Of a DNA stretch of 56,276 nt, positions 24,931 through 38,476 are shown piece by piece. A program made the position numbers and the translations under genes. Below the pieces are notes generated by a model. The model saw nothing but the letters and a program-made list of their open reading frames with translations. It did no database searches and was not told the DNA's origin. This DNA comes from an uncultured Candidatus Saccharibacteria bacterium (GTDB lineage: Bacteria > Patescibacteriota > Minisyncoccia > Phycocordibacterales > CAIRYW01): contig CAYUPH010000006.1 of assembly GCA_964446625.1 (NCBI GenBank), positions 1 through 56,276 on the forward strand, in the 5' to 3' direction. Position 1 is the stretch's first letter. Each line of letters begins with the position of its first letter.

Positions 24931-24939
24931 ACTAAAGCG

Positions 24940-24948
24940 ATTATAGCA
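24940..24948 (-). promoter_or_regulatory. Extended -10 promoter (TGCTATAAT) 9 nt upstream of ATG 24930
   Basis: Minus strand reads tgctataat-cgctttagt-ATG. Confidence 0.5.
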
Positions 24949-25008
24949 CCACAAGAATAAAATAAAACCTGATAAGGAATTATTTTACAAAAAGACAAAT
25001 TCTTCAAG

Positions 25009-25044
25009 TGTTAACAAATTCTGCTATCGCTAAGTTTGTTAACA
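25009..25044. promoter_or_regulatory. 10-bp perfect inverted repeat with 16-nt spacer, candidate operator
   Basis: tgttaacaaa (25009-25018) and tttgttaaca (25035-25044). Each arm contains the palindrome gttaac. It lies ~65-100 nt upstream of the 24940 promoter. Confidence 0.3.
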
Positions 25045-25094
25045 TTGCTTTGGTAAAAAGTTTTTGAGGTAAGGGTTTGAAAAAAAGGTAACAC

Positions 25095-25123
25095 AAAACC
25101 CGAGCGCGGAGCGCTCGGGTTTT
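25095..25123 (-). terminator. Intrinsic terminator after the 25225 ORF
   Basis: aaaacccgagcgc gga gcgctcgggtttt. Confidence 0.75.
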
Positions 25124-25224
25124 CTCCCAAAAAGACAACTAATTGCGTTCTTGGGTTTTGGATGACTGCCGGTCATCCTGCGGTGAACTCTTTTTTAGTG
25201 AGAGTTCGAAAACACTCAACTTCT

Positions 25225-25698
25225 TCACTGCCCTGGGCGCGGTAGATTGGGCAGTCTCGGATTTTTAGGATAAGTGCCTGGAGGGGCGATTGGCCCTCCA
25301 TTAGCAGCCCTGCGAATCCGATCGCAGTAGGGTTTAACTATCTCCCTTTTCTGACCCGGCAACTTTATCACTCCTCTGAGTAAGAGAATAGTGCAGATAA
25401 AGAAGCAAGGCACTGCTCCAACCAGGATTCCTTGGAGAGACTGCAGATTTGTATCTCCTGTCACCGTAAAGTGAGTCAGGAGAGTTAGCTTGCTGGGGGT
25501 CTTGGAATATTCCGCCCAACCCGTGAATACTCCGCAAGGAATAAGCAGAAGACTGACCGAGAGCAATGCCCCTAGTGCAGAAAACACCATTCCAACCCTC
25601 TGAATGACCTTCAGCCAGTCGAAAACGAAGCTGAAGAGGAAGCCAAGGGAGACGACGGCTGCAAGAGCCGCCCCAATAAGAAGAAGATCAATTTCCAT
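25225..25698 (-). CDS. Hypothetical membrane protein (3-4 TM, Pro/Arg-rich tail), GC-rich relative to surroundings
   Basis: Hydrophobic segments LLLIGAALAAVVSLGFLFSFVF, MVFSALGALLSVSLLLIPCGVF and ILVGAVPCFFICTILLL. The sequence is visibly richer in G+C than the flanking genes. Confidence 0.6.
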   Translation of the reverse strand: MEIDLLLIGAALAAVVSLGFLFSFVFDWLKVIQRVGMVFSALGALLSVSLLLIPCGVFTGWAEYSKTPSKLTLLTHFTVTGDTNLQSLQGILVGAVPCFFICTILLLRGVIKLPGQKREIVKPYCDRIRRAANGGPIAPPGTYPKNPRLPNLPRPGQ

Positions 25699-25733
25699 AT
25701 GAATGGACCTATGTCCTCTATAATACTACCACA

Positions 25734-27095
25734 CTAGACAGTGTTTGTCAATTCCTCTATTTGTACTCTTTTTTGCTCACCTGTATCCCTGTCCCGCACG
25801 GTAACAGTACCGTTTTCGAGCGTATCGAAATCAATCGTCACGCAAAAAGGTGTTCCGATTTCATCTTGTCTCCTGTACCTTTTTCCAATAGTTCCCGCTT
25901 CGTCAAAAAGCACATTTCCAAACTCTTTTTTTAGAACTCCAAAGACTTCCCTTGCCTTCGCAACAAGCTCTGGCCGGTTTTTAAGTAGAGGCAAAACAGC
26001 AACACGAACTGGTGCAACATTTTTGTGGAGCTTTAGGAAAACTCTCGGTTCCTCCCCCATTTCGTCTTCTGTGTACGCGTCCGAGAGAACCGCAAGAAGT
26101 GTTCTTCCTACTCCAAAAGACGGTTCGATCACGTGTGGAACAAACCTCTCTTTTGTTTCTTCATCAAAATACGACAAATCTACTTTTGAAGCTTCAGAGT
26201 GAGCCTTCAGGTCAAAATCTGTTCGGTATGCAAGACCGTAAAGCTCTTTTTTTCCAAAAGGAAAATCAAACTCGAAATCTATTGTTCTCTTTGAGTAATG
26301 CGCCCTGTCTTCTGGTGCTACTTCGAGCTCATGTACGGCACTTTCAGCAAGTCCAATGTCATCTTTTATAAAAGACCACATTTCTGTACGAAACTCTTCG
26401 AATTTCGCTTCCCAGTCTTTTTGATTTACAAAATACTCTATTTCCATTTGTTCAAGTTCACGCACACGGAAAATAAAATCTCGAGGTGCAATTTCGTTTC
26501 GGAATGCTTTTCCAATTTGTGCCATACCAAAAGGAAGTTTTGGATGAATCGAATCCATAATGTTTTTAAAGTTTACAAACATTCCTCCCGCAGTTTCTGG
26601 TCGAAGGTAAGAAACAGAAGAGTCGTCCTCGATTGCTCCAATATGAGTCTTGAGCATCATATTGAATTGTCTTACATCTCCAAGAGGGTTTCCTTCGGGA
26701 CTTTTTATTTGCTTTTCTTTGATTAGTTTATCCATCTCAGAAAGTGACATTCCTTTTGGGTCAGTGCCCGCTTCTTCTAGAAGGTGGTCAGCTCGGTATC
26801 TTTTTTTAGTTTTAAGGTCTTCAACAAGAGGATCAGAAAAGCCTGCGACGTGTCCAGACGCTTTCCATACATTTTGATTCATAAGGATTGCAGCGTCCAT
26901 GCCGTACATGTCTTCTCGCGAAAGAACAAATCTCTTCCACCAGAGGTTTTCTATATTTTTCTTTAGCGCAACACCAAGAGGTCCGTAATCCCATGTACCA
27001 GCGAGCCCTCCGTAAATTTCAGATCCTTGAAAGATAAATCCTCGCCTTTTACAAAGCGAAATGATTTTCTCCATTTTGTTGTCCTTTTGTTCCAT
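25734..27095 (-). CDS. glyQS: Glycine--tRNA ligase (class II, homodimeric GlyQS type)
   Basis: RGFIFQGSEIYGGLAGTWDYGPLG, LRPETAGGMFVNF, QIGKAFRNEIAPR, EPSFGVGRT. TGATAATAT lies 6 nt upstream of the ATG at 27095. Confidence 0.95.
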   Translation of the reverse strand: MEQKDNKMEKIISLCKRRGFIFQGSEIYGGLAGTWDYGPLGVALKKNIENLWWKRFVLSREDMYGMDAAILMNQNVWKASGHVAGFSDPLVEDLKTKKRYRADHLLEEAGTDPKGMSLSEMDKLIKEKQIKSPEGNPLGDVRQFNMMLKTHIGAIEDDSSVSYLRPETAGGMFVNFKNIMDSIHPKLPFGMAQIGKAFRNEIAPRDFIFRVRELEQMEIEYFVNQKDWEAKFEEFRTEMWSFIKDDIGLAESAVHELEVAPEDRAHYSKRTIDFEFDFPFGKKELYGLAYRTDFDLKAHSEASKVDLSYFDEETKERFVPHVIEPSFGVGRTLLAVLSDAYTEDEMGEEPRVFLKLHKNVAPVRVAVLPLLKNRPELVAKAREVFGVLKKEFGNVLFDEAGTIGKRYRRQDEIGTPFCVTIDFDTLENGTVTVRDRDTGEQKRVQIEELTNTV

Positions 27096-27132
27096 AGGGC
27101 TATATTATCAGCCTTTAGAAAAAATACCAAAA

Positions 27133-29076
27133 CTACTCAAGAATCTTGTCTTCACCAAAGTCATACTGTGGGTCCGCCTGAAGAATTGTAGTAAGAACTT
27201 TGAAAGTATTGATAATGTTAGTTTCTGTAAATGTGTCTTTTGCGGAAAGTGTTGAAACACTTAGAAGGTCAGGTGCGAGTCCTACTTGAGAGAGGCTTGG
27301 GGTAAAGGCTATCTGGAATGACACTTGTCTAAGAGAACCCTCCCCTCCATTTGCATATACTTTTCCAAGATCCCAGACTACTTGCCTTGAATCTTTGTCA
27401 TAAGAAATTTTTTCTGTCCCCGGAGATGTTCGTCCTGTCCAATCGATATATGACGGAAGTGTTGCGGTCACGCGCGCTCCGTCGATATCATTTAGCGTGT
27501 TTGTGACAGTCCAAGTGACAGTGTACTGGTTTAATTTTTCTACATGGGCTGGAATTGTTCCTGCATTTTGAAATGGACCAATGCTCTGAACAATCTGCGC
27601 AACAACTCGAGAATCTGCTTCAAGCTTTATCTTTCGTGTTGTCGTTGTAATGAGCTCCTCGGGAACATTGTTCTCCGAAAGCCTTTTTCCTTTTACTGTT
27701 ATTTGCACATCTACTTCTTGGTTTTTCTTTAGGGCTCCTTCAGCTACATATGGGCTGTATGTAAGAAAATCAAAGTTAAGAACTCCTTCTGCTCCAGGCT
27801 CAAGAACTTCGAGAGTTTTAGACTCGAACTTTGTCCATCGAATGAGGTTTTCGCTTGCCCTGTAAAACCCTTCGTTTGAGTTAAGAGACTTCTTGTCTAC
27901 CATAGGTCCTAGAACTTTTGCTTCAACAACTGCATCAATAACAGGAACTGAAAGATTGTTTTTCCAATCGATTTTTACTGGAACCGATTTTCCGCTTTTT
28001 GCGACATACGTGTCCGAGCCGGCATGTGAGTTCAAAGCAATCTGAGTTGATACAAAAGGCTTTTCAACAACAACTCCTTTTTCTACACGAGAAATAAGGC
28101 TTGCAATTGAAGATGGGTCGTCTTTGCTTCTGCCACCGATTGAGAAAATAAAGTATTTGTCTCCGCTTTGCCCACCTGTAATTGACCCCTTTAGAGTAAT
28201 TTTCTTTTTGCTTTGAGGCGCCATGTCGCCGAGACTCCATACATTTTTTCCAGAAATAGTAGCGGGGTTTGCGCTTCGTAGTTCATACCCAAACGGAAGG
28301 TCAGCGGTTAAAATAACATCTTTGATTACTTCTTTTGAGTTTGAAGTGACAGTTACTTCAATAGGCAGTTCTTGACCCACACTAATACGCCCCAAAACAG
28401 AAACTTCTATTGCAACTGGTGAAGAACCAATCAAAAACTCATATCCACCATCTTTAGTAAATACACTGTTTGATGTTTCAAGCCTGTATTCAAGTGAAGT
28501 GCTGATTTTTGGTCTTTCGCCTTCTTCACCAAAAAAGACTGCAGAGATTGTTTTCCTAATAGTTTCTCCACTTTGAATTGTGCCCACAGGGATTCTTTCG
28601 CGAGGCAAATCTGTGCTCCCGTCAGTCGCTTTCTTTGTCCCCTTTGGATATTCAACAAGAAGGTCTGCCAAAATAATCGGCACTTCGTTTTTGTTCGTAA
28701 CCGCTACATCAAAACTAACCGGTTCACCAGCAGGCGCAGAAATAGGTCCAATCACTTCAATTCCAATGTTCGAAGGTGAAATCACATTTGATCCTTTAAA
28801 GTAAACGAGCGCAGCATAGCTAAACGCTCCAATAAAAAAGATAAGCGAGGCAATCAGAAAAAAGCGAAGTACAGTTCCGCTTTTGTCGGTTGAAGTGTCT
28901 TCTGAAGGATTCTCTTCCTTTACTCCTTCCCACTCTTCTTTTGGAGCTGTGTTATGTTTTCTAAGGTCAAGAGAGAATGTGTTTGGAAACTCAGTATTAC
29001 GCGAGTAGATAGCCTCTTTTAGTTTATCAATCCGACTTGGTGCTTTGTCGTTTTGTTGGTCTTTGTTTTCTTCCAC
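27133..29076 (-). CDS. Large single-pass membrane protein with repeated beta-sandwich (CARDB/DUF11-like) ectodomains, function unknown
   Basis: The N-terminal ~70 aa are polar, followed by one TM (VLRFFLIASLIFFIGAFSYAALVYF) and ~550 aa of beta-rich repeats. Confidence 0.7.
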   Translation of the reverse strand: MEENKDQQNDKAPSRIDKLKEAIYSRNTEFPNTFSLDLRKHNTAPKEEWEGVKEENPSEDTSTDKSGTVLRFFLIASLIFFIGAFSYAALVYFKGSNVISPSNIGIEVIGPISAPAGEPVSFDVAVTNKNEVPIILADLLVEYPKGTKKATDGSTDLPRERIPVGTIQSGETIRKTISAVFFGEEGERPKISTSLEYRLETSNSVFTKDGGYEFLIGSSPVAIEVSVLGRISVGQELPIEVTVTSNSKEVIKDVILTADLPFGYELRSANPATISGKNVWSLGDMAPQSKKKITLKGSITGGQSGDKYFIFSIGGRSKDDPSSIASLISRVEKGVVVEKPFVSTQIALNSHAGSDTYVAKSGKSVPVKIDWKNNLSVPVIDAVVEAKVLGPMVDKKSLNSNEGFYRASENLIRWTKFESKTLEVLEPGAEGVLNFDFLTYSPYVAEGALKKNQEVDVQITVKGKRLSENNVPEELITTTTRKIKLEADSRVVAQIVQSIGPFQNAGTIPAHVEKLNQYTVTWTVTNTLNDIDGARVTATLPSYIDWTGRTSPGTEKISYDKDSRQVVWDLGKVYANGGEGSLRQVSFQIAFTPSLSQVGLAPDLLSVSTLSAKDTFTETNIINTFKVLTTILQADPQYDFGEDKILE

Positions 29077-29098
29077 GCCTTTATTATATCAAAAAGGT

Positions 29099-29671
29099 TT
29101 ACAAGTGGCTTGCGGAGATACCCTTGTTGATGAGGGAAACAAGTTCTACCCTCTCTGCGCTAGGCAACTCTTTTTGGAGAGTACCACTTCCCATTTCTAA
29201 AACTGGTGTCGTGACAGCATTGATTGGAATGTACCCGAGCGCATAAAGAATTTGAAGCGAGAAAATAATTTCTGCATCTTTCTCTTTGTGTGGAGCAATA
29301 CCAGCGAGATTTTCAAACATACTTCGAATATATGCAAAAAGAAGATCGTTTTTTTCTTCTCCATGAACAAGACTTTGCAACAGTTTCGTAGACCTTAAAA
29401 AAACTTTGTACCCCGGTGTGCCGTATGGAAGCTCCTCTATTTCTTCTACTTCAAGAAGTCTCCACACTTCTCTTCCTTTTAGAAGCGTCACACTAAGAAG
29501 CGCGCCTTTCCGAAGCGCACCAGAGAGTTTTGCACCTTCTCGCCGTACACTTTTTGCAAGCACACGCAGAAACCCAAAACCTTCGCAAAAAAGTGAAAGC
29601 ATTTTATCATCCTCGCCTGTGTTTGCTTCAGCAATTAAAAAACAAAACGATGAGTACTTACTATGCGCCAT
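29099..29671 (-). CDS. recO: DNA repair protein RecO-like (short form)
   Basis: N-terminal OB-fold pattern GEDDKMLSLFCEGFGFLRVLAKSVRREGAKLSGALRKGALLSVTL. Overlaps ileS by 11 nt. No Zn-finger cysteines. Confidence 0.6.
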   Translation of the reverse strand: MAHSKYSSFCFLIAEANTGEDDKMLSLFCEGFGFLRVLAKSVRREGAKLSGALRKGALLSVTLLKGREVWRLLEVEEIEELPYGTPGYKVFLRSTKLLQSLVHGEEKNDLLFAYIRSMFENLAGIAPHKEKDAEIIFSLQILYALGYIPINAVTTPVLEMGSGTLQKELPSAERVELVSLINKGISASHL

Positions 29672-32600
29672 AAGGAGCTACTGAAACCGTAAACTCCATG
29701 TCACCAAGCTGAAGAGTTTTACCGTTTGTAGATGTGTACTTTGTTTCAAATGCACCAACAACTCGCGAGACGTCTTCCATAAGAGAAGCTTCGCTGAGGA
29801 GTTTTTTTCCTGCGTCGTTTGAAGAAAGGGTAAGTGTAATTTTTTGCTCTTGAATGAAACCTGCTTCTTTTCGCATATCCTGTATAAAACGGATAAGCTC
29901 CCTACCTGCTCCCTCAAGAATAAGTGACTCGGTTAAAGTAAAATCAAGTTCAATTTTTTCTTGGAGAGCACTTTCAACAATTACCTCTTTTACATTGATC
30001 TCATCTTTCAAAATCTCTTTTAATTCGTTTTCGAGATCTTTTCCAATTTTAATGCTTTGAAGAGGTTGTTTTACTTTTATATTTTCTTTATTTCTTTCCT
30101 GAAGAGCGAGAGACGCGAGACGTCTGACTTCTACCATGTCTGAAATAATAGTCTCGTTGTACTCCATGAGTTTCGGCCACTCTGCAAGGTGAACACTTTC
30201 CACCTTGTCTTCTGCTTCAATCTTTTGGTACAGATCCTCTGCGAAAAATGGAGCAAATGGAGCAAGTATCTTTGCAAAGTTTTGCAGAACAAATCCGAGT
30301 GTTGCCACAGCATCTTTGTTTCCTTCTCGAAGTGCTTCTCTTGATCGCCGTAGGTACCATGTCGACAAATCATCTATAAAGAGTCGCATTTCTCGCACAG
30401 GTTCGAGGATCTGGAACTTATCCATATGCTCGCTCACTTTCTTTTCAAGGAGAGACAGTCTACTTAAAATCCATACATCGAGAGAGCGTGTGCTTCGGTC
30501 ATGAATAGGAGCACTCTCCCCTTTGCTTTGCTCATAGAAAACATACACATTTGAAAGAATGTTAAAGAATTTTTTTCGTACCTCATCTACAGTTCGTTCG
30601 TCGAAGTTTTTACTTTCTCCTGGCTGATTGACACTATAAAGCCAAAGTCTAAGCGTATCGACTCCGTACTTATCAGCCATTTCCCACGGATCAATAACAT
30701 TTCCAAGAGACTTAGACATTTTCTTGCCATCTTTGTCGAGAAGGTGTCCAAGACAGATTACATTTTTATACGCCTTTCCTTTTCCAAGAAGGTTTGAGAC
30801 AGCGTGCAGAGTATAGAACCACCCACGCGTCTGATCAATCGCTTCGGAAATAAAATCTGCCGGAAAAGATTTTCCTGTATCAATTTCGTTTTTATTTTCA
30901 AAAGGATAATGATTTTGAGCAAACGGCATTGCACCAGAATCGAACCAAACATCCATCACTTCCTTTACCCTCTTTAGAGCTGTCCCTTTTTTTGAGACCA
31001 ATGTAATTTCATCGATATAAGGCTTGTGTAAATCAAGTTTAAAATCATCGTCATGCGGAAGAGGCACAAACGAAAGCGTTTCAAAACCGGCATACGGCAA
31101 ATAGTTTACCCCAGGAGTATAAATCACCTCAGTCGCTTTGTCGTCTGCTCCCGCTGCAACAACCTTAAGAAGTTTAGCTGGACCATCATGAGTCACAATG
31201 AGGATCGTTTTTCCTTCGTAAGTTTTTTCGAGATCATACAAAAACTCCCCCATTCTCTTTTTTGTTTCCCTGAGAGTTTCTCCACCTCCAACAGATTCGT
31301 TCAAGCGAAACTCAAAATTTGGAAAATACTTTGTAAAGTCACTTGCTTTAAAACCTGAAATATCTCCAAAGTCTTCTTCCCGGATGCGCTCGTCTATAAA
31401 TACTTTCTTATCAAGCGCTGCGGCAACAATCTCTGCAGTCTCCCGGGTCCTTTGGAGTGGCGAAGAAATAATAAGGTCAATATTTTCTGAAAGGAGTTTT
31501 GCTCCTGCGTTCTTTGCTTCTTCTTTTCCCTTTGCAGTGAGTGCATGTGCTTCTTCTGTATCGCTACTTAGTATTCCTTTTATATTATGCTCCGCCTCTG
31601 CGTGTCGCATAATTATGTATCTGTTTCCTGACTTTTTTGTAAAAGATTTTAGTTCTTCAATTGAAGACGGAATAAATCTTTCTTCACCATTTTCACTTTC
31701 CCACACAGGAAGAGGAGTTCCCCAGTATCTTTCTCTTGAGATTGCCCAATCTTTTATGTCGCGAAGCCATTCACCAAAACGCCCTTCTCGTATATACTCT
31801 GGCTCCCAACCAATTGTTTTGTTTTCTTCTACTAACGTGTCGCGAAGTGTCGAAACTCCAATGTACCAAGAATCTCTCGCAAAATAGATAAGAGGGGTTT
31901 TACATCTCCAGCAGTGCGGGTATGAGTGTTCGTATTTTTCTTTTTTAAAGAGGAGTCCCCTTCCTGCTAAATCTTTTATGACATCTACTGCAACTTCCTC
32001 GTCTTTTACAAAACGGTTTGCAAGAAATCCACACCACTCATAAAAAGTTCCGTCGTTTCTTACAGTGTGTTTCTTTGGTAAACCAATTTTGCTTCCGAGA
32101 ACAAAGTCATCCGCCCCATACATAACCGCGGTGTGCACAATTCCAGTTCCATCTGTTGTTGTCACAAAGTCAGCGGGGTAAACTTTAAAAGCTTTGGAAA
32201 TGTCCTCTCCATTTTTTGTAAGCTCATCTTTTAAGAATGGATAGAGGGGTTCGTAAGAAAGAGACAAGAGATTCTCACCTTTAAACTCTTTTCTTAATTC
32301 ATCTTTAGTAAATCCAAGTTTTTCAGAAAGTTCCAACGCAACGATGTGGTTCTTTCCTTCTTTTTCAAAAACACCATAGGAGATATTCTCTCCCACTGCA
32401 AGCGCGACGTTTCCTGGAAGTGTCCACGGTGTTGTTGTCCACGCGACTATATAACTTTCACTAGGAAGCTCGAGCGCTTCGGGATTTAAAATTTTAAAGC
32501 TGGCGTAAACAGATAAATCTTTTACATCTTCGTAGCCTTGAGCAAGCTCATGACTTGAAAGCGCAGTTCCACACCTTGGGCACCATGGCACAACTTTGTA

Positions 32601-33128
32601 ATCTTTGTAGAGCAGATTTTTATCATTGACAGTCTTTACAATATTCCATACTGATTCAATGTAGCTATTGTCGAATGTAAAGTATGCTTTTTCCAAATCT
32701 ACCCAATATCCAATTCTTTCTGTAAATTTTTTCCACAGATCAATGTACTGAAGAACGCTTGCTTTGCATTTCTTGTTAAACTCGGCAACACCGAACTCTT
32801 CAATTTCTTTTTTTGATTTGAGTCCAAGCTCTTTTTCTACTTGAAGCTCTACTGGAAGTCCGTGTGTATCCCACCCTGCTCGGCGCACCACTTTAAAGCC
32901 CTTCATTGTTTTGTATCGAGGAATCACATCTTTGAAGCTTCGAGCCTCTACGTGGTGAATTCCTGGCTTTCCGTTTGCAGTCGGTGGACCCTCAAAAAAC
33001 ACAAAATCACCCTGAGGTGCGTCCTTTTCCTCGGTTTTTTTAAATATGCCTTTCTCCTTCCAGAACCCAAGGACCCTTTCCTCCATGAGGGCTAAGTCAG
33101 ATTTTTGTGTTTCGTTGTTTTCGCTCAT
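29661..33128 (-). CDS. ileS: Isoleucine--tRNA ligase (type 2-like) carrying an inserted histidine-phosphatase domain
   Basis: PPTANGKPGIHHV (HIGH region), a CP1 editing domain (TTTPWTLPGN), WAISRERYWGTPLPVW, KMSKSLGN. The insertion is described separately. Confidence 0.95.
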   Translation of the reverse strand: MSENNETQKSDLALMEERVLGFWKEKGIFKKTEEKDAPQGDFVFFEGPPTANGKPGIHHVEARSFKDVIPRYKTMKGFKVVRRAGWDTHGLPVELQVEKELGLKSKKEIEEFGVAEFNKKCKASVLQYIDLWKKFTERIGYWVDLEKAYFTFDNSYIESVWNIVKTVNDKNLLYKDYKVVPWCPRCGTALSSHELAQGYEDVKDLSVYASFKILNPEALELPSESYIVAWTTTPWTLPGNVALAVGENISYGVFEKEGKNHIVALELSEKLGFTKDELRKEFKGENLLSLSYEPLYPFLKDELTKNGEDISKAFKVYPADFVTTTDGTGIVHTAVMYGADDFVLGSKIGLPKKHTVRNDGTFYEWCGFLANRFVKDEEVAVDVIKDLAGRGLLFKKEKYEHSYPHCWRCKTPLIYFARDSWYIGVSTLRDTLVEENKTIGWEPEYIREGRFGEWLRDIKDWAISRERYWGTPLPVWESENGEERFIPSSIEELKSFTKKSGNRYIIMRHAEAEHNIKGILSSDTEEAHALTAKGKEEAKNAGAKLLSENIDLIISSPLQRTRETAEIVAAALDKKVFIDERIREEDFGDISGFKASDFTKYFPNFEFRLNESVGGGETLRETKKRMGEFLYDLEKTYEGKTILIVTHDGPAKLLKVVAAGADDKATEVIYTPGVNYLPYAGFETLSFVPLPHDDDFKLDLHKPYIDEITLVSKKGTALKRVKEVMDVWFDSGAMPFAQNHYPFENKNEIDTGKSFPADFISEAIDQTRGWFYTLHAVSNLLGKGKAYKNVICLGHLLDKDGKKMSKSLGNVIDPWEMADKYGVDTLRLWLYSVNQPGESKNFDERTVDEVRKKFFNILSNVYVFYEQSKGESAPIHDRSTRSLDVWILSRLSLLEKKVSEHMDKFQILEPVREMRLFIDDLSTWYLRRSREALREGNKDAVATLGFVLQNFAKILAPFAPFFAEDLYQKIEAEDKVESVHLAEWPKLMEYNETIISDMVEVRRLASLALQERNKENIKVKQPLQSIKIGKDLENELKEILKDEINVKEVIVESALQEKIELDFTLTESLILEGAGRELIRFIQDMRKEAGFIQEQKITLTLSSNDAGKKLLSEASLMEDVSRVVGAFETKYTSTNGKTLQLGDMEFTVSVAPYGA
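31149..31622 (-). other. Histidine-phosphatase (PGAM/phosphoglycerate-mutase-like) domain inserted in IleRS (aa ~503-660)
   Basis: YIIMRHAEAEHN (RH catalytic pair, codons 31602-31607), SSPLQRTRETA, IREEDFGDISG and LIVTHDGP are in the canonical order. Confidence 0.8.
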
Positions 33129-33360
33129 TGTCTTTTCGGCTATCTTACCATGTATTTTAGAGATTGAAAAAACGAGGGTTTTGGTATAGGATAAATTCTC
33201 GGTGAGAGTTCACCGACTCAAAATGAGATACACTTATATCAAACAGCGCCGTTGTCTCTGTTCTGACCGTCGTCACTGCTCTTTGTGTCGTCAACGATAC
33301 AGCAACTGTCGACAGCGCTAGTCTTCCCACCCTCCCCATAAAGGAGGCTTTTTTTATTCT

Positions 33361-34269
33361 TTACGCTGTTACTTGTGCAGTTTTGCAAGTCTCAGAGCAG
33401 AAAGCATAACCCCCTTCCTCGCTACAATCAGGACACACTACAAGGTGCTTGTGGCAGAGTTCGTTTGCACAGTTCACATAATTTTCAGAGGCTTTTCCGC
33501 ATTTGTCGCATTTACTTATGATTTCTCTATTTCCTCCAAAGTCCATGACAACACGGTTATCAAATGTGTAGAGAGTTCCAAGAAAATCTTCGCCCGGATA
33601 CTTTTCCATATATGTATGCATTCCCCCATCAAGCTGGTAGACATCTTTAAAACCTTTCTTAAGAAGATACCCGCTCATTTTTTCACATCGCACTCCCCCA
33701 GTACAAACTGTCAAAACTTTTTTGTCTTTTAAATTTTCAATTTTTTCAACAATTTGTGGAAGGTCGCGAGAGTTTTCCATGCCCGGGTCAATAGAATTTT
33801 TAAAGTGCCCTACTTTATACTCGTAACTGTTTCGCATATCCACAATATAAAATTCCTCCCCTTTCTCGTACCATTTTTTTAGTTCATCCGCGGGAAGATG
33901 CCTTCCTGTAAGTGCGTTCGGGTTTACATCATCTTCACCGAGGCGAAGAGAAACAATTTCTTTCTTTACTTTCACTTTAAGTTTTGGAAAAGCCTCCCCT
34001 GTTCCTGGACTTGTTTTAAAATGAATTCCGCGCAGGTTTCCCATGTGGCGAGTGTCTGGCGAGCTCCCGATTTTAGAAATTGCTTCTTTGTATTTTTCTA
34101 TGTCCTCAGGTTTACCTTCAAGAGTTGCATTAATTCCCTCTTCTGCAACAATAATTCGCCCCTTAAAACCAAAGGCTGCGCAAATTCCCCTGTTCCAAGC
34201 CGCAAGCGCTTCGGGGTTTGGAATTGGTGCGTATTTGTAAAATAGTAAAACTGTATACTCTTCTTTCAT
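33361..34269 (-). CDS. trhO: Rhodanese-domain protein of the UPF0176/YceA (TrhO, tRNA U34 hydroxylase) family
   Basis: LLFYKY N-terminus, rhodanese loop VCTGGVRCEK and a C-terminal Cys-rich tail. Confidence 0.85.
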   Translation of the reverse strand: MKEEYTVLLFYKYAPIPNPEALAAWNRGICAAFGFKGRIIVAEEGINATLEGKPEDIEKYKEAISKIGSSPDTRHMGNLRGIHFKTSPGTGEAFPKLKVKVKKEIVSLRLGEDDVNPNALTGRHLPADELKKWYEKGEEFYIVDMRNSYEYKVGHFKNSIDPGMENSRDLPQIVEKIENLKDKKVLTVCTGGVRCEKMSGYLLKKGFKDVYQLDGGMHTYMEKYPGEDFLGTLYTFDNRVVMDFGGNREIISKCDKCGKASENYVNCANELCHKHLVVCPDCSEEGGYAFCSETCKTAQVTA

Positions 34270-34297
34270 ATATATACTTTTATCATAAAACCTAAAA

Positions 34298-34332
34298 CAA
34301 AAAAAGACCCGAGCTTTGGTGGGTCTTTTTTT
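34298..34332 (-). terminator. Intrinsic terminator after the DoxX gene
   Basis: agaccc (10-nt loop) gggtct, flanked by A7/T7 runs. Confidence 0.65.
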
Positions 34333-34343
34333 GTTTTCCGTAT

Positions 34344-34928
34344 TTAAGCGTGTGTATGTCCGTCGCCGTGGTGGTGTGAGTGACCGTGATCATGACAGTG
34401 CCCTGCGTGGCAACCTTCTCCTTTTCCGCAACCTACTGCTTTACAGAGACCACATTTCTCGGCAAGAGCGTGGCACTTACATGCGCACCACTTGTGAACT
34501 GAGTAAGCCCCTGAACCAAGAAACATTTCTGCCAAAAGTCCAAAGAGAAGAACGATATCAATTTCAATAACATTGTAGATAAAAGAAAATTTATCGTAGA
34601 AAGGAACTGGTGTTGGACTAGCGTCTATTTGTGGAAGAACAAAACCAAGGAGTTTTGCCTTTACAATAGCAACGAGCATAACAACCACAAGTGCCGCTGT
34701 CGCGTAACATGTGAAAATTCCGAAGATCAAAAAGAGACCTCCAACAATTTCTGTGACCGCTGTAAGGTGAAACAAGAAATTTCCCGCGCTCCCAAACAGA
34801 TTAGTAAAAAATGGTAAAGCCTGTTCTTTGTTTACAAACTTATCAACTCCATGAAGGACAAACGGAAGACCTACTGCAATTCGCAGAAGCAAAAGTCCGA
34901 GATTTTTTTTCATTGGTGAACAATGCAT
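34344..34928 (-). CDS. DoxX-family membrane protein with C-terminal Cys/His-rich metal-binding-like tail
   Basis: LLLLRIAVGLPFVLHGVDKF is a DoxX-like start, followed by 4 TM. The tail is KWCACKCHALAEKCGLCKAVGCGKGEGCHAGHCHDHGHSHHHGDGHTHA. The likely start is MKKNL (34913). Confidence 0.8.
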   Translation of the reverse strand: MHCSPMKKNLGLLLLRIAVGLPFVLHGVDKFVNKEQALPFFTNLFGSAGNFLFHLTAVTEIVGGLFLIFGIFTCYATAALVVVMLVAIVKAKLLGFVLPQIDASPTPVPFYDKFSFIYNVIEIDIVLLFGLLAEMFLGSGAYSVHKWCACKCHALAEKCGLCKAVGCGKGEGCHAGHCHDHGHSHHHGDGHTHA

Positions 34929-34969
34929 ATTTTTAACGATTATATTAACTTTTAATTTTCCCTATTATC

Positions 34970-36676
34970 TCACATCTCCTCCGGGATGTTAATTCCAAGG
35001 AGGAATAGTCCCTGCTCTAACACCCTTCCAAAAAGATGCGCTAGTGCAAGCCTGTGAGCTGTCTCTTTGTCATCTTTGTCTATAATTTTGTTGTGCGCGT
35101 AAAAGTTATTGAACTCACTTGTCAGACGAAGCAAATATTCCACCAAAAGATTTGGTGATTTTTCTTCAAATGCTCTGTGTGCCACAGCACCAAAACGACA
35201 CAGAAGCTTTTCTAAAAAGAGCACTTTCCTCTCTCCTCCTATGTATATTGGCACAATCCCCTCTGCTGCCGCTTTTTTTAAAAGAGAAGCTACTCGCACT
35301 CCTGCATACAGAAGGTATGGCCCCGAGTCACCGTCGAACGACATAGACTTTTCTCGATCAAAAACAATATCCTTTCCAGGCGATTGCCTTAGAATCGAAA
35401 ACTTTATTGCAGAAACCGCAATCTTTTCTGCCACTTCTTTTTTCTTTTCGGGGGTCATATCACGCTCTTCCATTTTCTTGAGCGCTTTTTCTTCCATCTC
35501 AAGGAGAAGTTCCTCACCTGTAATAATATTTCCTTTTCTCGAACTCATCTTCCCATCACTAAACCTAAGCATTCCATGGCCGATAAATTTTGTCTTCTTT
35601 GCTTCGTCTGGGTGAAGCAGGAACATTACCCGTCTGAGAACCTTAAAGTAGTCGCTAATCTCGTTAGCGGAAGTAATAACAGACAAATCAAACTTATGTC
35701 GCTCAGATTTTGTAAAAAAGAGTGCGAGTTCTTTTGCTTCATAGGTTGGAAGTCCCTCAGAGTTTAGAAAAACTCTTGTGTGAAGGCCAAAACGCTCACC
35801 CGGAAACACAACAGCACCCTCACTTTCTTCAAACAAAAACCCTAGGTTTTCTGTCACAATTTCCTTTGCCAAGTCCACAACTTCACTTTCAAAAATAAAC
35901 TCATCAAAACGTGTATCAAGTTTTTTGTAGATTTTGTCGAAGTAAAGAAGACTCCACTCTTTTCCCTTTTTGTAATACACCTCAAGATCCGCGTCACTTT
36001 TTTCAAAAAGCTTTTTATTTATCGCCCTAATTTCAGATTTTGCAGTTTCATCGTCTTCATACGCATGTGCTCCGACAACATACGCATCTCCCATAAACTT
36101 GATCTTGTCTGCAATACTGTCGTCGTCATGCGGAAAACCTGCGCGCGCTTTTTGCATTGCCCAAATTGTTTTTGCAACATGAAGCCCTATATCTCCTTGG
36201 TAACAAATTCTTTTTATGTGAGCACCTTGAAATTCGCAAAGCCGGCTTAGTGTCTCACCAACCGCATTTGCCATGAGGTGCCCAATATGAAAAGCCTTAA
36301 AAGGATTTGGGTCAGTGTACTCAAAAAGAGCAGTCTGCCCTTCCATACTATGTCCGCGTCCAGGAATCTTTTCTTTGTAGAGCTCTGCACACTCTGCTCT
36401 AAAATACTCGTCTTTTATATAAAAATTTAAGAAACCAGGTCCGGCTATTTCTACTTTTTCCAGTTCGGGAATAGCAGAAAAATCTAAGTTGTCTTTAATT
36501 TTCTCCGCAAATTCGTTTGCACCCATTCCAAACGCTCCGCAGTGTTTTAGAGCAACATTTGAAGTAAAGTCTCCATTTTTTATATTTTCTGGGTGTTCAA
36601 TATGTATTTCGGCCCCAGGAAGACTGAGCTTTTCTAAGGTAGAACCGATTACAGATTTTAGTTTACTGACTATCAT
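34970..36676 (-). CDS. argS: Arginine--tRNA ligase
   Basis: DPNPFKAFHIGHLMANAVGE (HIGH), MSSRKGN (a degenerate KMSK) and a C-terminal DALR-type anticodon-binding region. Confidence 0.93.
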   Translation of the reverse strand: MIVSKLKSVIGSTLEKLSLPGAEIHIEHPENIKNGDFTSNVALKHCGAFGMGANEFAEKIKDNLDFSAIPELEKVEIAGPGFLNFYIKDEYFRAECAELYKEKIPGRGHSMEGQTALFEYTDPNPFKAFHIGHLMANAVGETLSRLCEFQGAHIKRICYQGDIGLHVAKTIWAMQKARAGFPHDDDSIADKIKFMGDAYVVGAHAYEDDETAKSEIRAINKKLFEKSDADLEVYYKKGKEWSLLYFDKIYKKLDTRFDEFIFESEVVDLAKEIVTENLGFLFEESEGAVVFPGERFGLHTRVFLNSEGLPTYEAKELALFFTKSERHKFDLSVITSANEISDYFKVLRRVMFLLHPDEAKKTKFIGHGMLRFSDGKMSSRKGNIITGEELLLEMEEKALKKMEERDMTPEKKKEVAEKIAVSAIKFSILRQSPGKDIVFDREKSMSFDGDSGPYLLYAGVRVASLLKKAAAEGIVPIYIGGERKVLFLEKLLCRFGAVAHRAFEEKSPNLLVEYLLRLTSEFNNFYAHNKIIDKDDKETAHRLALAHLFGRVLEQGLFLLGINIPEEM

Positions 36677-37322
36677 TTTCTATATATGACCAAATCTTCT
36701 CATGAATTGTCTCGGGTGGCAAAACATTTGCCCCCTCCATACAATCCACTCTTTTCCAAAAGGCGTCTTTTTGAAGCATGAACTTTCCTGCTTCTTTTGA
36801 GTTTTTGAGGTATTCAAAATCCGAATCTGCGGCATCCTTAATTCCCTCTCGTTTTGAAATGAGTTCAATCGATGCTTCAAGCGTCATGTCCAAATAGAAA
36901 ACCACACTTGGCTTAAGTATGTGAAGCACATCGTATTCCATTTTTGAGAGCCATACAAGAAAATCTTCTCTCTCTTTTTCTGTGCGCAGTTTTCCTCCCT
37001 GGTGAATTTGGTTTGAAGTCACATACCTATCAAGTACCACCGTTTTCCCTTCTGCGAGCCACGTTTTTATTTTATCCATCGTTTCAAAGCGATCGCACGC
37101 ATACAAAACTGAAGCAATCTTTGGATCGGTTTTTATAAAATCCCCGTGCTTTCCATCCAGGCACTCACGAATGAGGGCTCCAAAAAGATTATCCTCGTAG
37201 CGAGGGAATCGCAAAGACTCCGAAGGAACCCCCTCTTTTTTAAGGCGCTGAAGAAGCAAATCTGTTTGAGTAGTCTTCCCTGACCCGTCACTTCCTTCGA
37301 TAACAATTAAATTTGCTTTCAT
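36663..37322 (-). CDS. tmk: Thymidylate (dTMP) kinase
   Basis: LIVIEGSDGSGKTTQ (P-loop) and DRYVTSNQIHQ. Overlaps argS by 14 nt. Confidence 0.92.
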   Translation of the reverse strand: MKANLIVIEGSDGSGKTTQTDLLLQRLKKEGVPSESLRFPRYEDNLFGALIRECLDGKHGDFIKTDPKIASVLYACDRFETMDKIKTWLAEGKTVVLDRYVTSNQIHQGGKLRTEKEREDFLVWLSKMEYDVLHILKPSVVFYLDMTLEASIELISKREGIKDAADSDFEYLKNSKEAGKFMLQKDAFWKRVDCMEGANVLPPETIHEKIWSYIENDSQ

Positions 37323-37326
37323 TTTT

Positions 37327-38475
37327 CTACTTGTTCTTTATCCGAGGTGGCCTCTTAATTCCTAAAGCGTACTTAGTTTCTCCTGCATCACTTCCCCTTG
37401 GTTTTAAAGTATTAACAAACATCGGTCGAGAAAGTTTGTCATAGACCTCTTTTGATACTGTAGATCGAGGGAGAGGTGAAGGTGTGAAAAAGGCATGCGT
37501 AAATCTCTTGAAAAAAGATGGCTTCTTATGTTTTACATTTTCATACACTCTTTCTACTGCATCCCTTAGACCAGCAGTATTTGTAACAGATTGAATTAGA
37601 TACTCACCTTTCCCATTTGCAGTATCAAAAATTCCTTCGATCATATCGAGCAAATCATTCCTTCTAAAAAGTTGCTTACTTCCTTGAAGTCCGTGCTCAA
37701 GTGCAGGCGCATACAGTATTACAGCTTCAAGATCTTGGCGGGTCTTCGCCATTTGAAGCCTATACTTAAAATCATTCCATTCCTCTTCTGTTGAACCCTC
37801 TCTCTTTTCAATTTCTTCTGCACTCACAGTGTCTTTATACAAAGAACCGTCTGACATTTCATACTCTCGAGTTGCAGTTGCAATGTCTTCTTGTAGCACT
37901 ATTGCTTTATTTTCTATCTCCAAAAGCTTTGTCACCTTTTCCCTCAACCCCTCAGCTATTGGAAGTGCATCAATACCATAGCGGTGACTAAACACGCCGC
38001 GGACAAGTTCTTGCACTTTTTCTTTTGAGTATGTTCCCGAATCAGAAGCCAAACCATTAAAACTTTCTGACTCAATAAATGCAAACAAATCTTTTTTGTT
38101 TGCAATTTTTGTAAATAAACCATCTTCTTTCTCTGGTATACCTTCTGGTTTTCCCATTTGCGCAAGAAAAGCTTCCCTATCTGCCTCAACTCTTTTGCAC
38201 CACTCCACTTTCGCACGAATTTTTTTTGCAGCCACACTATCCGTCGGCAAAGCTTCAATACCCTTTACCCTGTTATAGACTGACGCTAAATATTCCTCTG
38301 CCGCCTTCTGGTCTGCTTCGGTTTTTATCTCATCAAATAGCGTTAGTAAAAACCATGCATCAATAGAAGCATTTCCCATTCCATCTCTCATTTTATATAC
38401 CACAATAAAATTTTCCGACAACCCCTCGAGTGGGTCTTTTTTCTCTGGTAAAGGTGTACTAAAAATTTCTCCCAT
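37327..38475 (-). CDS. Hypothetical 382-aa protein with three internal repeats and a basic C-terminus
   Basis: The recurring module appears as VYNRVKGIEALPTDSVAAKKIRAKV, VFSHRYGIDALPIAEGLREKV and IFDTANGKGEYLIQSVTNTAGLRDAV. It is packed between glyA and tmk (gaps of 1 and 4 nt). Confidence 0.65.
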   Translation of the reverse strand: MGEIFSTPLPEKKDPLEGLSENFIVVYKMRDGMGNASIDAWFLLTLFDEIKTEADQKAAEEYLASVYNRVKGIEALPTDSVAAKKIRAKVEWCKRVEADREAFLAQMGKPEGIPEKEDGLFTKIANKKDLFAFIESESFNGLASDSGTYSKEKVQELVRGVFSHRYGIDALPIAEGLREKVTKLLEIENKAIVLQEDIATATREYEMSDGSLYKDTVSAEEIEKREGSTEEEWNDFKYRLQMAKTRQDLEAVILYAPALEHGLQGSKQLFRRNDLLDMIEGIFDTANGKGEYLIQSVTNTAGLRDAVERVYENVKHKKPSFFKRFTHAFFTPSPLPRSTVSKEVYDKLSRPMFVNTLKPRGSDAGETKYALGIKRPPRIKNK

Positions 38476-38476
38476 A

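Follow-up and report, generated by a model that had tools for sequence, protein, structure and literature searches.

The window, by which we mean the whole stretch of 56,276 nucleotides that was analysed, carries ileS at 29661..33128 (stop codon included) on the minus strand, which also encodes all the other features located below. The gene is a single intact open reading frame of 1155 amino acids for a type-2 isoleucyl-tRNA synthetase (IleRS) with a phosphatase domain nested inside it. The N-terminal IleRS part (aa 1-496, 31641..33128) comprises the first half of the Rossmann fold, the CP core, the CP1 editing domain, CP2 and the first arm of CP3, and the C-terminal part (aa 692-1155, 29664..31055) the second arm of CP3, the second half of the Rossmann fold, the anticodon-binding domain and the type-2 C-terminal domains (DUF5915). 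The protein scores 859.7 bits against the IleRS equivalog model TIGR00392 (cut-off 621.4), the nearest NCBIfam models being MupA/MupB-like, and Pfam recognises tRNA-synt_1, Anticodon_1 (aa 884-1025) and DUF5915 (aa 1030-1150; 43 bits against a cut-off of 27). Its top PDB matches are the IleRS2 structures 8c8w and 8c8u, and 1ile, and an AF2 model of the full protein (pLDDT 81.3) also has IleRS2 structures as its top Foldseek matches. Window residues 15-495 align with residues 13-476 of P. megaterium IleRS2 (8c8w) and residues 692-1105 with 480-908, the C-terminal part as a whole being matched to residues 480-1026. The CP1 editing domain matches 1wk8 and 1wny (E=8.5e-32), the CP-core zinc site is kept (PWCPRCGT, 32565-32588; PHCWRCKT, 31896-31919) and KMSKS is read in the translation at 30708-30722. 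By its equivalog model, editing domain, KMSKS motif and C-terminal domains the host enzyme is therefore of type 2.

The preliminary description of this DNA had listed the HIGH motif among the elements present, together with CP1 editing and KMSKS. The last two are there, but in the translation the class I signature has the swapped form G-I-H-H (aa 56-59, 32952..32963), a GxHH variant, in place of H-x-G-H. Among 30 homologues P55, H58 and H59 do not vary and G56 and I57 hardly do, and the best PDB match, 8c8w, is itself a GVHH mutant. The G/AXHH signature is known only in IleRS2, is compatible with activity and is described as conferring mupirocin hyper-resistance (Brkic et al. 2023, PMC10485003), so that G-I-H-H is no argument against IleRS2 membership. 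Beside ileS, a recO-like gene (29099..29671, Pfam RecO_N) has its start overlapping the ileS stop by 11 nt, and argS (ArgRS, 34970..36676, from Pfam) is the upstream anchor of a conserved neighbourhood.

The domain inserted in CP3

The inserted segment spans aa 497-691 (31056..31640) and consists of a branch-1 histidine-phosphatase domain with short linkers at the tip of the CP3 hairpin. Its boundaries were set from the 8c8w alignment, where the gap between residues 476 and 480 falls at window residues 495 and 692, and from the alignment of homologues; the 31059-31646 given earlier corresponds to aa 495-690 on translation. About 196 window residues thus stand in place of three in P. megaterium IleRS2. 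The preliminary description had read a full histidine-phosphatase domain here and had proposed a Pfam search, an AlphaFold model and a homologue search, all of which bear it out. Pfam His_Phos_1 (PF00300) matches aa 505-662 (31143..31616) over profile positions 2-162 of 194 with E=6e-32 and 111.3 bits against a cut-off of 21.7, and the insert on its own gives E=3.6e-33 and 115.3 bits. Its best PDB match by phmmer is 4ij5 (E=4.3e-15). The AF2 model of the insert (pLDDT 94.9, pTM 0.91) takes the histidine-phosphatase fold and superposes on PspA (4ij5, 4ij6) with TM 0.81-0.82 and rmsd 2.2-2.5 A, followed in the Foldseek ranking by 9mmh (the riboflavin-pathway HFP), GpgP, CobC and PhoE; there are 320 PDB matches at E<=1e-3, and the top 50 of these 320 all belong to the histidine-phosphatase superfamily. 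By profile, motifs and alpha/beta fold the insert is a member of branch 1 of that superfamily.

The label PGAM-like, under which the domain had been introduced, is better replaced by that of a small phosphatase of the PhoE/PspA/CobC kind, since the dPGM equivalog cut-offs are not reached. A role in glycolysis as cofactor-dependent phosphoglycerate mutase is highly improbable. Its best NCBIfam match is indeed the archaeal dPGM model NF038349, but at 98-102 bits against a cut-off of 225, with TIGR01258 at 33 against 81.7 and the other dPGM models far under their cut-offs; moreover, the domain measures about 165-195 aa and lacks both the cap insertion and the C-terminal tail of the mutase, and classical dPGM/BPGM structures give TMt values of 0.53-0.65 as opposed to 0.72-0.79 for phosphatases, the monomeric S. 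pombe PGM (1fzt, 0.75) being the exception. The insert is also below the cut-offs for PspA (NF045917, 75-78 against 350), CobC (TIGR03162, 80-81 against 162.9), SixA (TIGR00249, 32 against 74.5) and GpmB (NF002901, 50-53 against 261), so that, for all its resemblance to these enzymes, it can be filed under none of them by NCBIfam thresholds.

The catalytic elements come in the canonical order claimed before, as borne out by the translation and by their near-invariance in about 140 domain copies. R508-H509 (31602..31607) form an RHG-type motif, here R-H-A, with H509 the predicted phospho-acceptor; in the translation and alignments they are followed by R560 (31449..31451), the second phosphate-pocket arginine, in an SPLxRTxET motif, by E584 (31377..31379), the predicted general acid, and by H647 (31188..31190), the second catalytic histidine, in the motif T-H-D-G-P. 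Among 30 full-length homologues that share just 36-56% identity over the insert, no variation is seen at R508, H509, S556, R560, T564, R625 and H647, and very little at N515 and E584. In a wider set 84/86 single copies have the R-H pair, as do 21/22 tandem and 29/31 stand-alone ones, the rest being gaps or truncations, and R560 is invariant in all 86, 22 and 31 of them; the position of E584 holds E in 82 of the 86 single copies (D in the other four) and in all 22 tandem ones, while H647 is found in 83/86, 22/22 and 30/31 copies, respectively. This essentially invariant set suggests that catalysis is under selection in nested, tandem and stand-alone copies. By analogy with the chemistry of the superfamily, a phosphomonoester would be hydrolysed through a phospho-His509 intermediate, with R508, R560 and H647 holding the phosphoryl group and E584 acting as proton donor. 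In the window H509 is followed by A instead of G, a replacement found in 6/86 single and 4/22 tandem copies, and H647 by D, as in the subclade to which the window belongs, where most other copies have G; these two replacements of G could lower the activity of the window copy.

The host site was expected to be a short connector between conserved IleRS blocks. A connector it is, but by alignment the tip of the CP3 zinc-knuckle subdomain; what had been called the catalytic core is in fact a peripheral and structurally variable subdomain, whose topology differs between IleRS structures (PMC7191050), and the site is on that account permissive. The first knuckle (aa 476-483, WESENGEE, 31680..31703) has lost the CxxC zinc ligands of relatives and the second (aa 708-722, ITLVSKKGTALKRVK, 30963..31007) the CxC ligands, so that all four CP3 cysteines are gone in the window and its near relatives (WESENGEE and LVSKKGTALKR against CxxC and CxC). 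In the alignment P0034, P0041, P0075, P0083, P0086, P0089 and P0105 keep both CxxC and the insert; since several members thus retain zinc ligands together with the insert, the insertion preceded the loss of the cysteines. The second knuckle is in some relatives a further insertion site (A') for another phosphatase copy.

The absence of the four cysteines could be taken to mean that the domain is a structural or regulatory module, replacing the zinc knuckle as a scaffold, mediating dimerisation or sensing a phospho-metabolite to tune IleRS, with hydrolysis irrelevant. Histidine phosphatases of the PspA type are often dimers, and proteins with two copies could pair them intramolecularly. We regard such a module as very unlikely, however, because every architecture retains the catalytic residues almost without change, the insertion came before the cysteines were lost, and the stand-alone form described below shows that a scaffold role in CP3 is unnecessary.

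Spread of the nested, tandem and stand-alone architectures

The nested architecture is genuine and widespread. All of the 120 best homologues (120/120) carry PF00133 together with PF00300, and the GTDB search yielded at least 514 confirmed stretches; in the 80 of these loci that we took, the N-terminal IleRS part, the insert and the C-terminal IleRS part are colinear in 80/80 and in one frame in 79. The loci belong to Patescibacteria and come from many independent assemblies and samples, the insertion being common to hundreds of such assemblies. GC content stays at 0.39-0.42 across the insert, with no compositional break, and no boundary repeats were found at its edges. The continuous 1155-aa frame with IleRS flanks on both sides agrees with the in-frame insertion into a complete IleRS stated at the outset, and the recurrence of the architecture with the flat GC agrees with the view that neither an assembly or gene-fusion artefact nor a pseudogene is involved. 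We found no support for an assembly chimera, a frameshifted pseudogene or a mis-assembly fusion; against the continuous frame, the uniform composition and the same arrangement in so many independent samples, its probability is negligible. A search of the full-text literature found no description of a phosphatase paired with IleRS, in agreement with what had been said before.

In related lineages a separate phosphatase gene of about 190 aa lies directly upstream of an ileS without the insert, and these stand-alone proteins match the insert profile at E 1e-45 to 1e-51. The gene adjoins ileS in 37 of the 39 loci with enough context, 36 on the same strand and one convergent. Loci L081-L169 divide into 41 nested (plus two truncated), 36 adjacent on the same strand, one convergent and seven with no IleRS match, five of these seven having flanks too short to tell; no adjacent ileS was seen at L088 (1.3 kb downstream, with RecO there instead) or at L117 (1.7 kb). 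None of 169 loci contains two copies, and at no locus do the nested and the stand-alone form occur together. Nested and adjacent states interleave on the IleRS tree, with mixed groups at 95-100% support in bootstrapped NJ trees built from metagenomic contigs, and the adjacency of phosphatase and ileS holds down to about 40% IleRS identity.

The order ArgRS-(phosphatase)-IleRS-RecO-DUF11-class II aaRS-M16 peptidase is conserved, also at the split-form loci L081 and L084; in split-form loci the phosphatase gene lies between argS and ileS, where the window has DoxX and TrhO genes. In most of L081-L169 the gene next upstream of the phosphatase or IleRS is that of ArgRS, and ArgRS and RecO are likewise conserved neighbours. 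Because CPR genomes generally conserve housekeeping synteny, adjacency alone is weak evidence of functional coupling.

There are four IleRS insertion sites overall (A, A', B and C), the window copy being in CP3, and in Gracilibacteria and Peregrinibacteria His_Phos is found at three further IleRS sites, often in two copies; the two-copy protein P0149 is present in two independent samples. Copies cluster by site between proteins, at 37-54% identity, against just 23-26% within one protein, and both copies are therefore old and maintained. In P0459, two HAD phosphatase domains with intact DxDGV motifs occupy site B and there is no His_Phos, which would indicate that the activity, not the fold, is under selection. 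Four relatives (P0460, P0475, P0481 and P0483) combine the phosphatase with AAA_33/AAA_18 P-loop domains whose GxxGxGKT motifs are intact. IleRS proteins of Gracilibacteria and Peregrinibacteria also often have GNAT alongside His_Phos. Mobile or unrelated inserts (DUF559, an IS200-like Y1 transposase, GNAT) are seen in IleRS of related lineages as well, and given these the IleRS loops may simply be permissive landing sites.

From there it is a short step to proposing that a general housekeeping or metabolic phosphatase (for instance a PspA-like phosphoserine phosphatase or a PhoE-like scavenger), sharing the ileS operon, was neutrally captured in the loops and is unrelated to isoleucylation. 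The generally conserved housekeeping synteny, the uptake of DUF559, Y1_Tnp and GNAT by the loops of relatives, the metabolic phosphatases among the best matches and the presence in the window of SHMT and a thymidylate cluster, both serine-consuming, speak for such a capture. We nevertheless consider it unlikely, in that nesting of the phosphatase has recurred, at four different sites, the nested state strictly excludes the adjacent one (169 loci), two diverged copies were retained in the long term, a non-homologous HAD phosphatase was recruited into the same host and adjacency persists to about 40% IleRS identity. The patterns of nesting, exclusivity, copy retention and HAD recruitment are hard to explain without selection keeping the phosphatase with IleRS; likewise, the split or adjacent form, the several sites and the HAD analogue favour a phosphatase activity needed beside IleRS over a random moonlighting fusion.

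Possible role of the phosphatase

Phosphatase and IleRS form a conserved partnership with interchangeable architectures, namely an upstream gene, a CP3-nested copy, and one or two copies in other loops. The best reading of these data, which we hold to be probable, is that selection keeps an autonomous and active phosphomonoesterase in the company of IleRS; the insert itself would be an ancient and apparently active small phosphatase of the PhoE/PspA/CobC type nested in CP3 of a housekeeping type-2 IleRS. Since site and copy number vary and a covalent link seems dispensable, the phosphatase would be an autonomous module kept with IleRS. It would be present in the same amount and the same place as IleRS, possibly in a complex, and would not take part, from an exact position, in the chemistry of aminoacylation or editing. 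As for the substrate, our leading guess is a diffusible phosphomonoester, be it a small metabolite or a nucleotide; this is the least supported step of the proposal, and we would consider it about equally likely to prove right or wrong.

A tRNA substrate is unlikely, although it is the alternative that we take most seriously. The nested phosphatase would here strip the 3'- or 2'-phosphate from damaged tRNA on the synthetase for repair and charging, the phosphate coming from an opened 2',3'-cyclic phosphate or from 3'-(pyro)phosphorylation by a toxin, and the nested P-loop kinase of relatives would give the 5'-kinase half, as in T4 Pnkp, which consists of a P-loop kinase and a HAD-type 3'-phosphatase. 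In support of such end-healing, the partner IleRS binds tRNA, Gracilibacteria and Peregrinibacteria relatives pair the phosphatase with P-loop domains with intact motifs, and one relative (P0459) uses a HAD phosphatase in its place. With a median pI of 9.84 and a net charge of +9.3 per 100 aa, the stand-alone forms are far more basic than the nested ones (9.13) and than their own IleRS partners (9.22), as would fit a free protein needing its own RNA affinity, but these charge differences partly follow proteome composition; the window insert is acidic (pI 5.5). To our knowledge no RNA 3'-phosphatase is known in the histidine-phosphatase superfamily. The nearest relatives in sequence and structure are all small-molecule phosphatases whose active site is capped, which argues against tRNA ends; tRNA repair would, moreover, not be expected to be specific to IleRS, and no RNA ligase was seen in the neighbourhoods examined. 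The Pnkp-like pairing of 5'-kinase and 2',3'-phosphatase modules is not found in the window protein, in which Pfam detects no P-loop kinase domain, kinase-like inserts occurring only in distant relatives. In a broader version, IleRS of Patescibacteria might be the platform on which damaged tRNA is repaired or its quality controlled; the phosphatase (His_Phos, though HAD in one lineage) is nested or adjacent and in some lineages is joined by a nested P-loop kinase and GNAT, and tRNA ends that are damaged or modified by toxins (3'-P, 2',3'>P, 3'-pyrophosphate, 5'-OH) would be healed on the synthetase before charging. We offer this as a speculative possibility that we think improbable. If true, RNA repair would be coupled to an aaRS, for which no precedent is known, and the histidine-phosphatase superfamily would gain its first nucleic-acid 3'-phosphatase.

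Whichever its substrate, a large radiation of uncultured bacteria retains a second and unrelated catalytic activity alongside IleRS, as a neighbour gene, nested at four loops, in one or two copies, and once as a non-homologous phosphatase. Aminoacyl-tRNA synthetases are among the best-studied enzymes, and their known inserted domains serve editing or tRNA binding; we know of no aminoacylation step that needs phosphate-ester hydrolysis. The strong comparative-genomic signal suggests that in these organisms such hydrolysis is needed wherever isoleucyl-tRNA is made. The substrate could reveal a hitherto unknown connection of translation with metabolism in organisms of reduced genome, a function in tRNA repair or as an antitoxin, or a resistance mechanism, the GxHH motif of the host being already associated with mupirocin hyper-resistance. 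Split and fused versions both occur in nature, making the system directly testable, and the repeated nesting of a domain at a permissive site is a clean natural case of use to protein engineering.

Comparison with known systems

Kinase and phosphatase are joined in one polypeptide in T4 Pnkp and in PFK-2/FBPase-2, the latter a P-loop kinase with His_Phos_1 whose structures 1bif and 1tip are weak to moderate matches of the insert. Some relatives of the window IleRS share this combination, with a kinase-like P-loop domain, whereas the window protein differs in having no kinase, and the host is another one. A further parallel is the bifunctional RNase H/acid phosphatase of the Rv2228c/RnhC type (NF005567, the second-best NCBIfam match of the insert at 89-93 bits, under the cut-off of 326), where, as here, one polypeptide contains a CobC-like histidine phosphatase and an enzyme acting on nucleic acid; the RNase H and phosphatase domains of that type are autonomous. 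Its fusion is end to end and the partner RNase HI, whereas in the window the domain is nested and the partner an aminoacyl-tRNA synthetase. NCBIfam NF040702 (ileS_w_GNAT, isoleucine--tRNA ligase with an N-acetyltransferase domain) is a curated precedent for an extra enzymatic domain in IleRS of the Patescibacteria type; the window protein scores 335 bits against its cut-off of 1999 and has no GNAT Pfam match, and the name of the model omits a phosphatase. With the type-2 IleRS that carry G/AXHH (PMC10485003, 8c8w) the window host shares its GIHH signature, DUF5915 and its best match, 8c8w, but described IleRS2 have a short CP3, with a zinc knuckle or none, and, unlike the window protein, no reported catalytic domain there. 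The insert itself has the fold, the RH...R...E...H order and the length of about 190 aa of PspA (4ij5), PhoE (1h2e), the CobC alpha-ribazole phosphatase (6nru), GpgP (4qih) and HFP (9mmh), with TM 0.76-0.82, rmsd 2.2-3.0 A and 20-28% identity; those enzymes are free-standing and act on defined small substrates, whereas the phosphatase described here is nested in, or encoded beside, an aminoacyl-tRNA synthetase.

Host enzyme and identity of the nested domain

The isoleucyl-tRNA synthetase (IleRS) of the window is encoded by a single uninterrupted open reading frame of 1155 amino acids (ileS, 29661..33128, minus strand), whose product reaches 859.7 bits against TIGR00392 (cut-off 621.4) and carries the Pfam domains tRNA-synt_1, Anticodon_1 and DUF5915. 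In NCBIfam the type-2 MupA/MupB enzymes are nearest to it, and the best solved structures for it are those of P. megaterium IleRS2 (8c8w/8c8u) and T. thermophilus IleRS (1ile). The preliminary description had listed a HIGH element in this enzyme; the class I signature is instead G-I-H-H and not H-x-G-H (aa 56-59; 32952-32963, minus strand), and over the 30 aligned phosphatase-carrying homologues this motif is conserved, with both histidines invariant and the G and I at least nearly so. The host enzyme is an IleRS2 of the G/AXHH type, the swapped form for which mupirocin hyper-resistance of IleRS2 has been reported (PMC10485003).

The guest domain is a PhoE/PspA/CobC-like phosphatase. The coordinates originally proposed for it were exact, 31059-31646 corresponding to aa 495-690 on translation, and its catalytic residues were located on the minus strand at 31602-31607 (R508/H509), 31449-31451 (R560), 31377-31379 (E584) and 31188-31190 (H647). 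Pfam agreed with the initial assignment to the histidine phosphatases: His_Phos_1 matches aa 505-662 of the whole protein (E=6e-32) and the insert alone with E=3.6e-33 and 115 bits (cut-off 21.7), and no second His_Phos copy was found in the window. The top sequence matches of the insert are small phosphatases, led by PspA (4ij5, E=4e-15), after which come PhoE, CobC and Entamoeba PSP. An AlphaFold model of aa 497-691 (pLDDT 94.9, pTM 0.91) superposes on PspA with a TM of 0.81-0.82 and an rmsd of 2.2-2.5 Å, and also on the histidine-family phosphatase of the riboflavin pathway (9mmh), glucosyl-3-phosphoglycerate phosphatase, CobC and PhoE; the classical dPGM/BPGM mutases superpose more poorly, with the exception of the monomeric S. 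pombe PGM (1fzt). The insert reached none of the NCBIfam equivalog thresholds for dPGM, PspA, CobC, SixA and GpmB. It therefore belongs to the histidine-phosphatase superfamily and resembles its small-molecule phosphatases, but cannot be equated with any named enzyme.

Alignment of the homologues showed that R508, H509, S556, R560, T564, R625 and H647 are invariant and G510, N515 and E584 nearly so, A510 and D648 of the window being minority states that recur in other members. The insert diverges faster than its host (36-56% versus 58-64% identity among homologues). When the full-length enzyme was modelled (pLDDT 81.3), the insert was the most confident part (block pLDDT 86-95), and a Foldseek search with this full-length model returned IleRS structures only.

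A real, ancient and widespread insertion

The phosphatase domain in IleRS is real, ancient and widespread. A chimeric join or a recent insertion was ruled out, since GC content is flat over the junctions and neither direct nor inverted repeats lie at the boundaries; the same observations, together with the colinear order of N-terminal IleRS part, insert and C-terminal IleRS part in 80 of the 80 best GTDB loci, uphold the earlier view that the architecture is no artefact. All of the 120 best homologues (54-62% identity; 1116-1270 aa save one fragment) combine PF00133 with PF00300, and their source names (Paceibacterota, Vogelbacteria, 'Patescibacteria group') are patescibacterial. A scan of GTDB with one genome per species and the insert alignment as query confirmed at least 514 stretches, such scan counts being lower bounds or possibly counting stretches twice; the best 80 loci among them belong to Taylor-, Nomura-, Vogel-, Kaiser-, Yonath- and Zambryskibacteria, Paceibacteria and Minisyncoccia, and 79 of these 80 are in a single frame. 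In the remaining one, L062, the frame shifts at 4600-4732, past the insert and ahead of the C-terminal IleRS part, through either a sequencing error or decay of the copy. Many representative proteins of 700-760 aa start about 50 aa before the domain and resemble the product of a gene split at the insertion site. A split IleRS was ruled out; because their N-termini fall at a conserved internal Met (M425, M507) or have no Met, these representatives are truncated gene calls.

In the alignment to 8c8w, residues 13-476 of that structure are matched by aa 15-495 of the window enzyme and those from 480 on by aa 692 and following, and therefore about 196 residues replace three at the insertion point. 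The segments flanking the insert are the two arms of CP3, a small subdomain that follows CP2 and precedes the second half of the Rossmann fold; in T. thermophilus IleRS it bears a zinc knuckle, and among IleRS structures it varies in topology (PMC7191050). All four CP3 cysteines are gone in the window and its nearest relatives, the knuckle motifs reading WESENGEE (31680-31703) and LVSKKGTALKR (30963-31007) on the minus strand, and the CP-core zinc site is retained (32565-32588 and 31896-31919, minus strand). Since several homologues keep the CxxC...CxC ligands alongside the insert, the insertion predates the loss of the zinc site.

Other sites, several copies and neighbouring genes

Some representatives have two to four His_Phos matches. 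Excising the domains and aligning the remainder to the IleRS core of the window placed them at four sites: A, the aa 496/692 junction at the CP3 tip; A', around aa 717-722 in the second CP3 knuckle; B, around aa 743-748, after DSGAMPFAQ-HYPFEN; and C, around aa 869-880, in the loop preceding the anticodon-binding helices. Two domains are present in P0142, P0188, P0197, P0238, P0149, P0196, P0140, P0199 and P0218 (loci L170, L171 and L174), and the pairs occupy distinct sites, A and A' (P0149, seen in two independent samples), B and C (P0142, whose cluster lies on contigs of up to 1.06 Mb), or A and C. Copies at the same site are 37-54% identical across proteins and the two copies within one protein only 23-26%, so that both copies are old and a recent tandem duplication is ruled out as the source of the two-copy proteins. 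The catalytic signature is intact in every copy of the multi-site proteins, and purifying selection acts on the catalytic residues in all architectures.

The relatives of P0142, whose taxa were assigned indirectly through homologue names, are called Gracilibacteria, Peregrinibacteria and Peribacteria; PF00300 is present in almost all of them and extra nested domains in many, through which the IleRS of Gracilibacteria and Peregrinibacteria (P0399, P0460, P0475, P0481, P0483 and many more) attain 1400-1860 aa. The extra domains comprise a GNAT acetyltransferase, which is the architecture behind NCBIfam NF040702, P-loop kinase domains (AAA_33/AAA_18/Zeta-toxin-like) with GxxGxGKT intact, DUF559 (a Vsr-like endonuclease) and, in the region of the editing domain, an IS200-like Y1 transposase. 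The Gracilibacteria-like P0459 (1504 aa) has no His_Phos and contains at site B two HAD phosphatase domains (566-760 and 770-960, with DFDGV/DNDGV), apparently a non-homologous replacement of the histidine phosphatase. Neither the position nor the number of copies is constant, and the same host enzyme can accommodate a phosphatase of another fold. In P0121 (L172 366-3851, also L173), a divergent class I synthetase with 22% identity to the N-terminal part of the window enzyme, His_Phos matches four times, once near window aa 433 and three times at CP3; its reading frame stops at a TAA inside the fourth copy, the frame past the stop is still phosphatase-like, and the same sequence occurs in two assemblies. 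A pseudogene, a split gene and read-through are all conceivable here.

The search of 1.84 billion representative proteins with the insert profile yielded 426 clusters (E<=1e-30), including, next to IleRS proteins, many Met-starting proteins of about 190-210 aa that have no IleRS flanks (E 1e-45 to 1e-51). This stand-alone family is patescibacterial, with names including Staskawiczbacteria and 'Patescibacteria group', is annotated as 'histidine phosphatase family protein' or 'PhoE', and is markedly basic (median pI 9.84 versus 5.5 for the window insert). The gene of P0194 (L081 8001-8570) lies 1 nt upstream of an insert-less IleRS of 931 aa (L081 8572-11367), in the synteny of the window (ArgRS - phosphatase - IleRS - x - RecO - DUF11 - class II aaRS - M16 peptidase); P0204 and P0211 have the same arrangement, P0187, with truncated context, is consistent with it, and the P0165 gene is convergent with its IleRS. 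Among 89 loci tallied from a metagenome scan with stand-alone sequences and from individual gene look-ups, 41 (plus 2 truncated) are nested, 36 have the phosphatase directly upstream of an insert-less ileS on the same strand (L081, L084, L086, L090, L094 and others), 1 is convergent, 7 have no IleRS hit and 2 have no hit. Flanks are too short in five of the seven, and the others, L088 and L117, have no adjacent ileS within 1.3-1.7 kb downstream. At L088 (288-920, P0180; contig of 2.1 kb) recO follows, after a small opposite-strand ORF, in the place of ileS. Nested and adjacent forms occur together in 0 of 169 loci, as do two copies: the phosphatase is kept with IleRS covalently or as an adjacent gene, never both.

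The interval between ileS and argS, which holds the phosphatase gene in split-form genomes, contains in the window two other genes, one for a TrhO-like rhodanese (33361-34269) and one for a His/Cys-rich DoxX protein (34344-34928), both on the minus strand. Synthetase genes are unusually dense from 20635 to 36676 (minus strand), with a short MetRS-like ORF of 480 aa (20635-22077), a class II tRNA-synt_2b/HGTP synthetase (25734-27095), IleRS and ArgRS (34970-36676), all likewise on the minus strand. A recO-like ORF with a weak RecO_N match (E=6e-9) starts at 29671, before the ileS stop (29661-29663) is reached, and this overlap of 11 nt is suggestive of translational coupling. A compact deoxypyrimidine/folate cluster lies at 36663-43073 (thymidylate kinase, SHMT, dCMP deaminase, thymidylate synthase, dCTP deaminase and DHFR), in which a '23S rRNA intervening sequence protein' ORF (39667-40152) overlaps a deaminase ORF (40074-40583).

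A bootstrapped NJ tree built on the IleRS core from metagenomic contigs (suffix n, nested; a, adjacent) has the two states interleaved, and therefore the state has changed several times. Fourteen stand-alone types form an unmixed clade supported at 100%, and mixed groups are found at 95-100% (L093n with L110a/L120a/L156a; L096n/L097n/L113n with L111a/L137a; L081a among 15 nested). Either relocation, by repeated insertion or excision, or allelic replacement by recombination could account for the changes. The phosphatase-domain tree (165 columns) has low resolution and conflicts in part with that of IleRS; the phosphatases of L156 and L136, for instance, group together at 100% and their IleRS do not.

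Possible role and known counterparts

The functional statements made here all derive from sequence. The insert would be an active phosphomonoesterase using the phospho-histidine mechanism of its superfamily, and it may constitute an autonomous module whose presence with IleRS is under selection; it probably does not serve the synthetic or editing site as a component fixed in an exact position. From its structural neighbours and capped active site we favour a small phosphomonoester as the substrate. A role as a tRNA-end phosphatase is rather unlikely; it would fit a partner enzyme that binds tRNA, the basic character of the stand-alone forms and the relatives that co-nest a P-loop kinase or the HAD alternative, a pairing of kinase and HAD phosphatase being reminiscent of T4 Pnkp. 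Possibly the phosphatase is a pure hitch-hiker, associated with IleRS without selection, as the order of housekeeping genes is conserved in general and mobile inserts are tolerated in IleRS loops; this leaves the repeated nesting, the mutual exclusivity and the HAD analogue unaccounted for. Since both split and fused pairs occur in nature, why phosphatase and IleRS are associated can be tested directly.

A phosphatase in IleRS would surprise the specialist in aminoacyl-tRNA synthetases. Full-text literature searching found no description of one, in agreement with what the preliminary description had stated, and neither a 2026 survey of domain insertions (PMC13114784) nor a 2026 preprint on IleRS domain evolution (10.64898/2026.02.03.703510) mentions it. 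The domain pair is already visible in databases, where the Pfam hits are precomputed and one JGI protein is named 'isoleucyl-tRNA synthetase/phosphohistidine phosphatase SixA/...'. The closest precedents include the NCBIfam family 'ileS_w_GNAT', a curated and unpublished combination of an enzyme domain with IleRS, and the actinobacterial RNase H/acid-phosphatase (NF005567), which in contrast to the nested domain is an end-to-end fusion.
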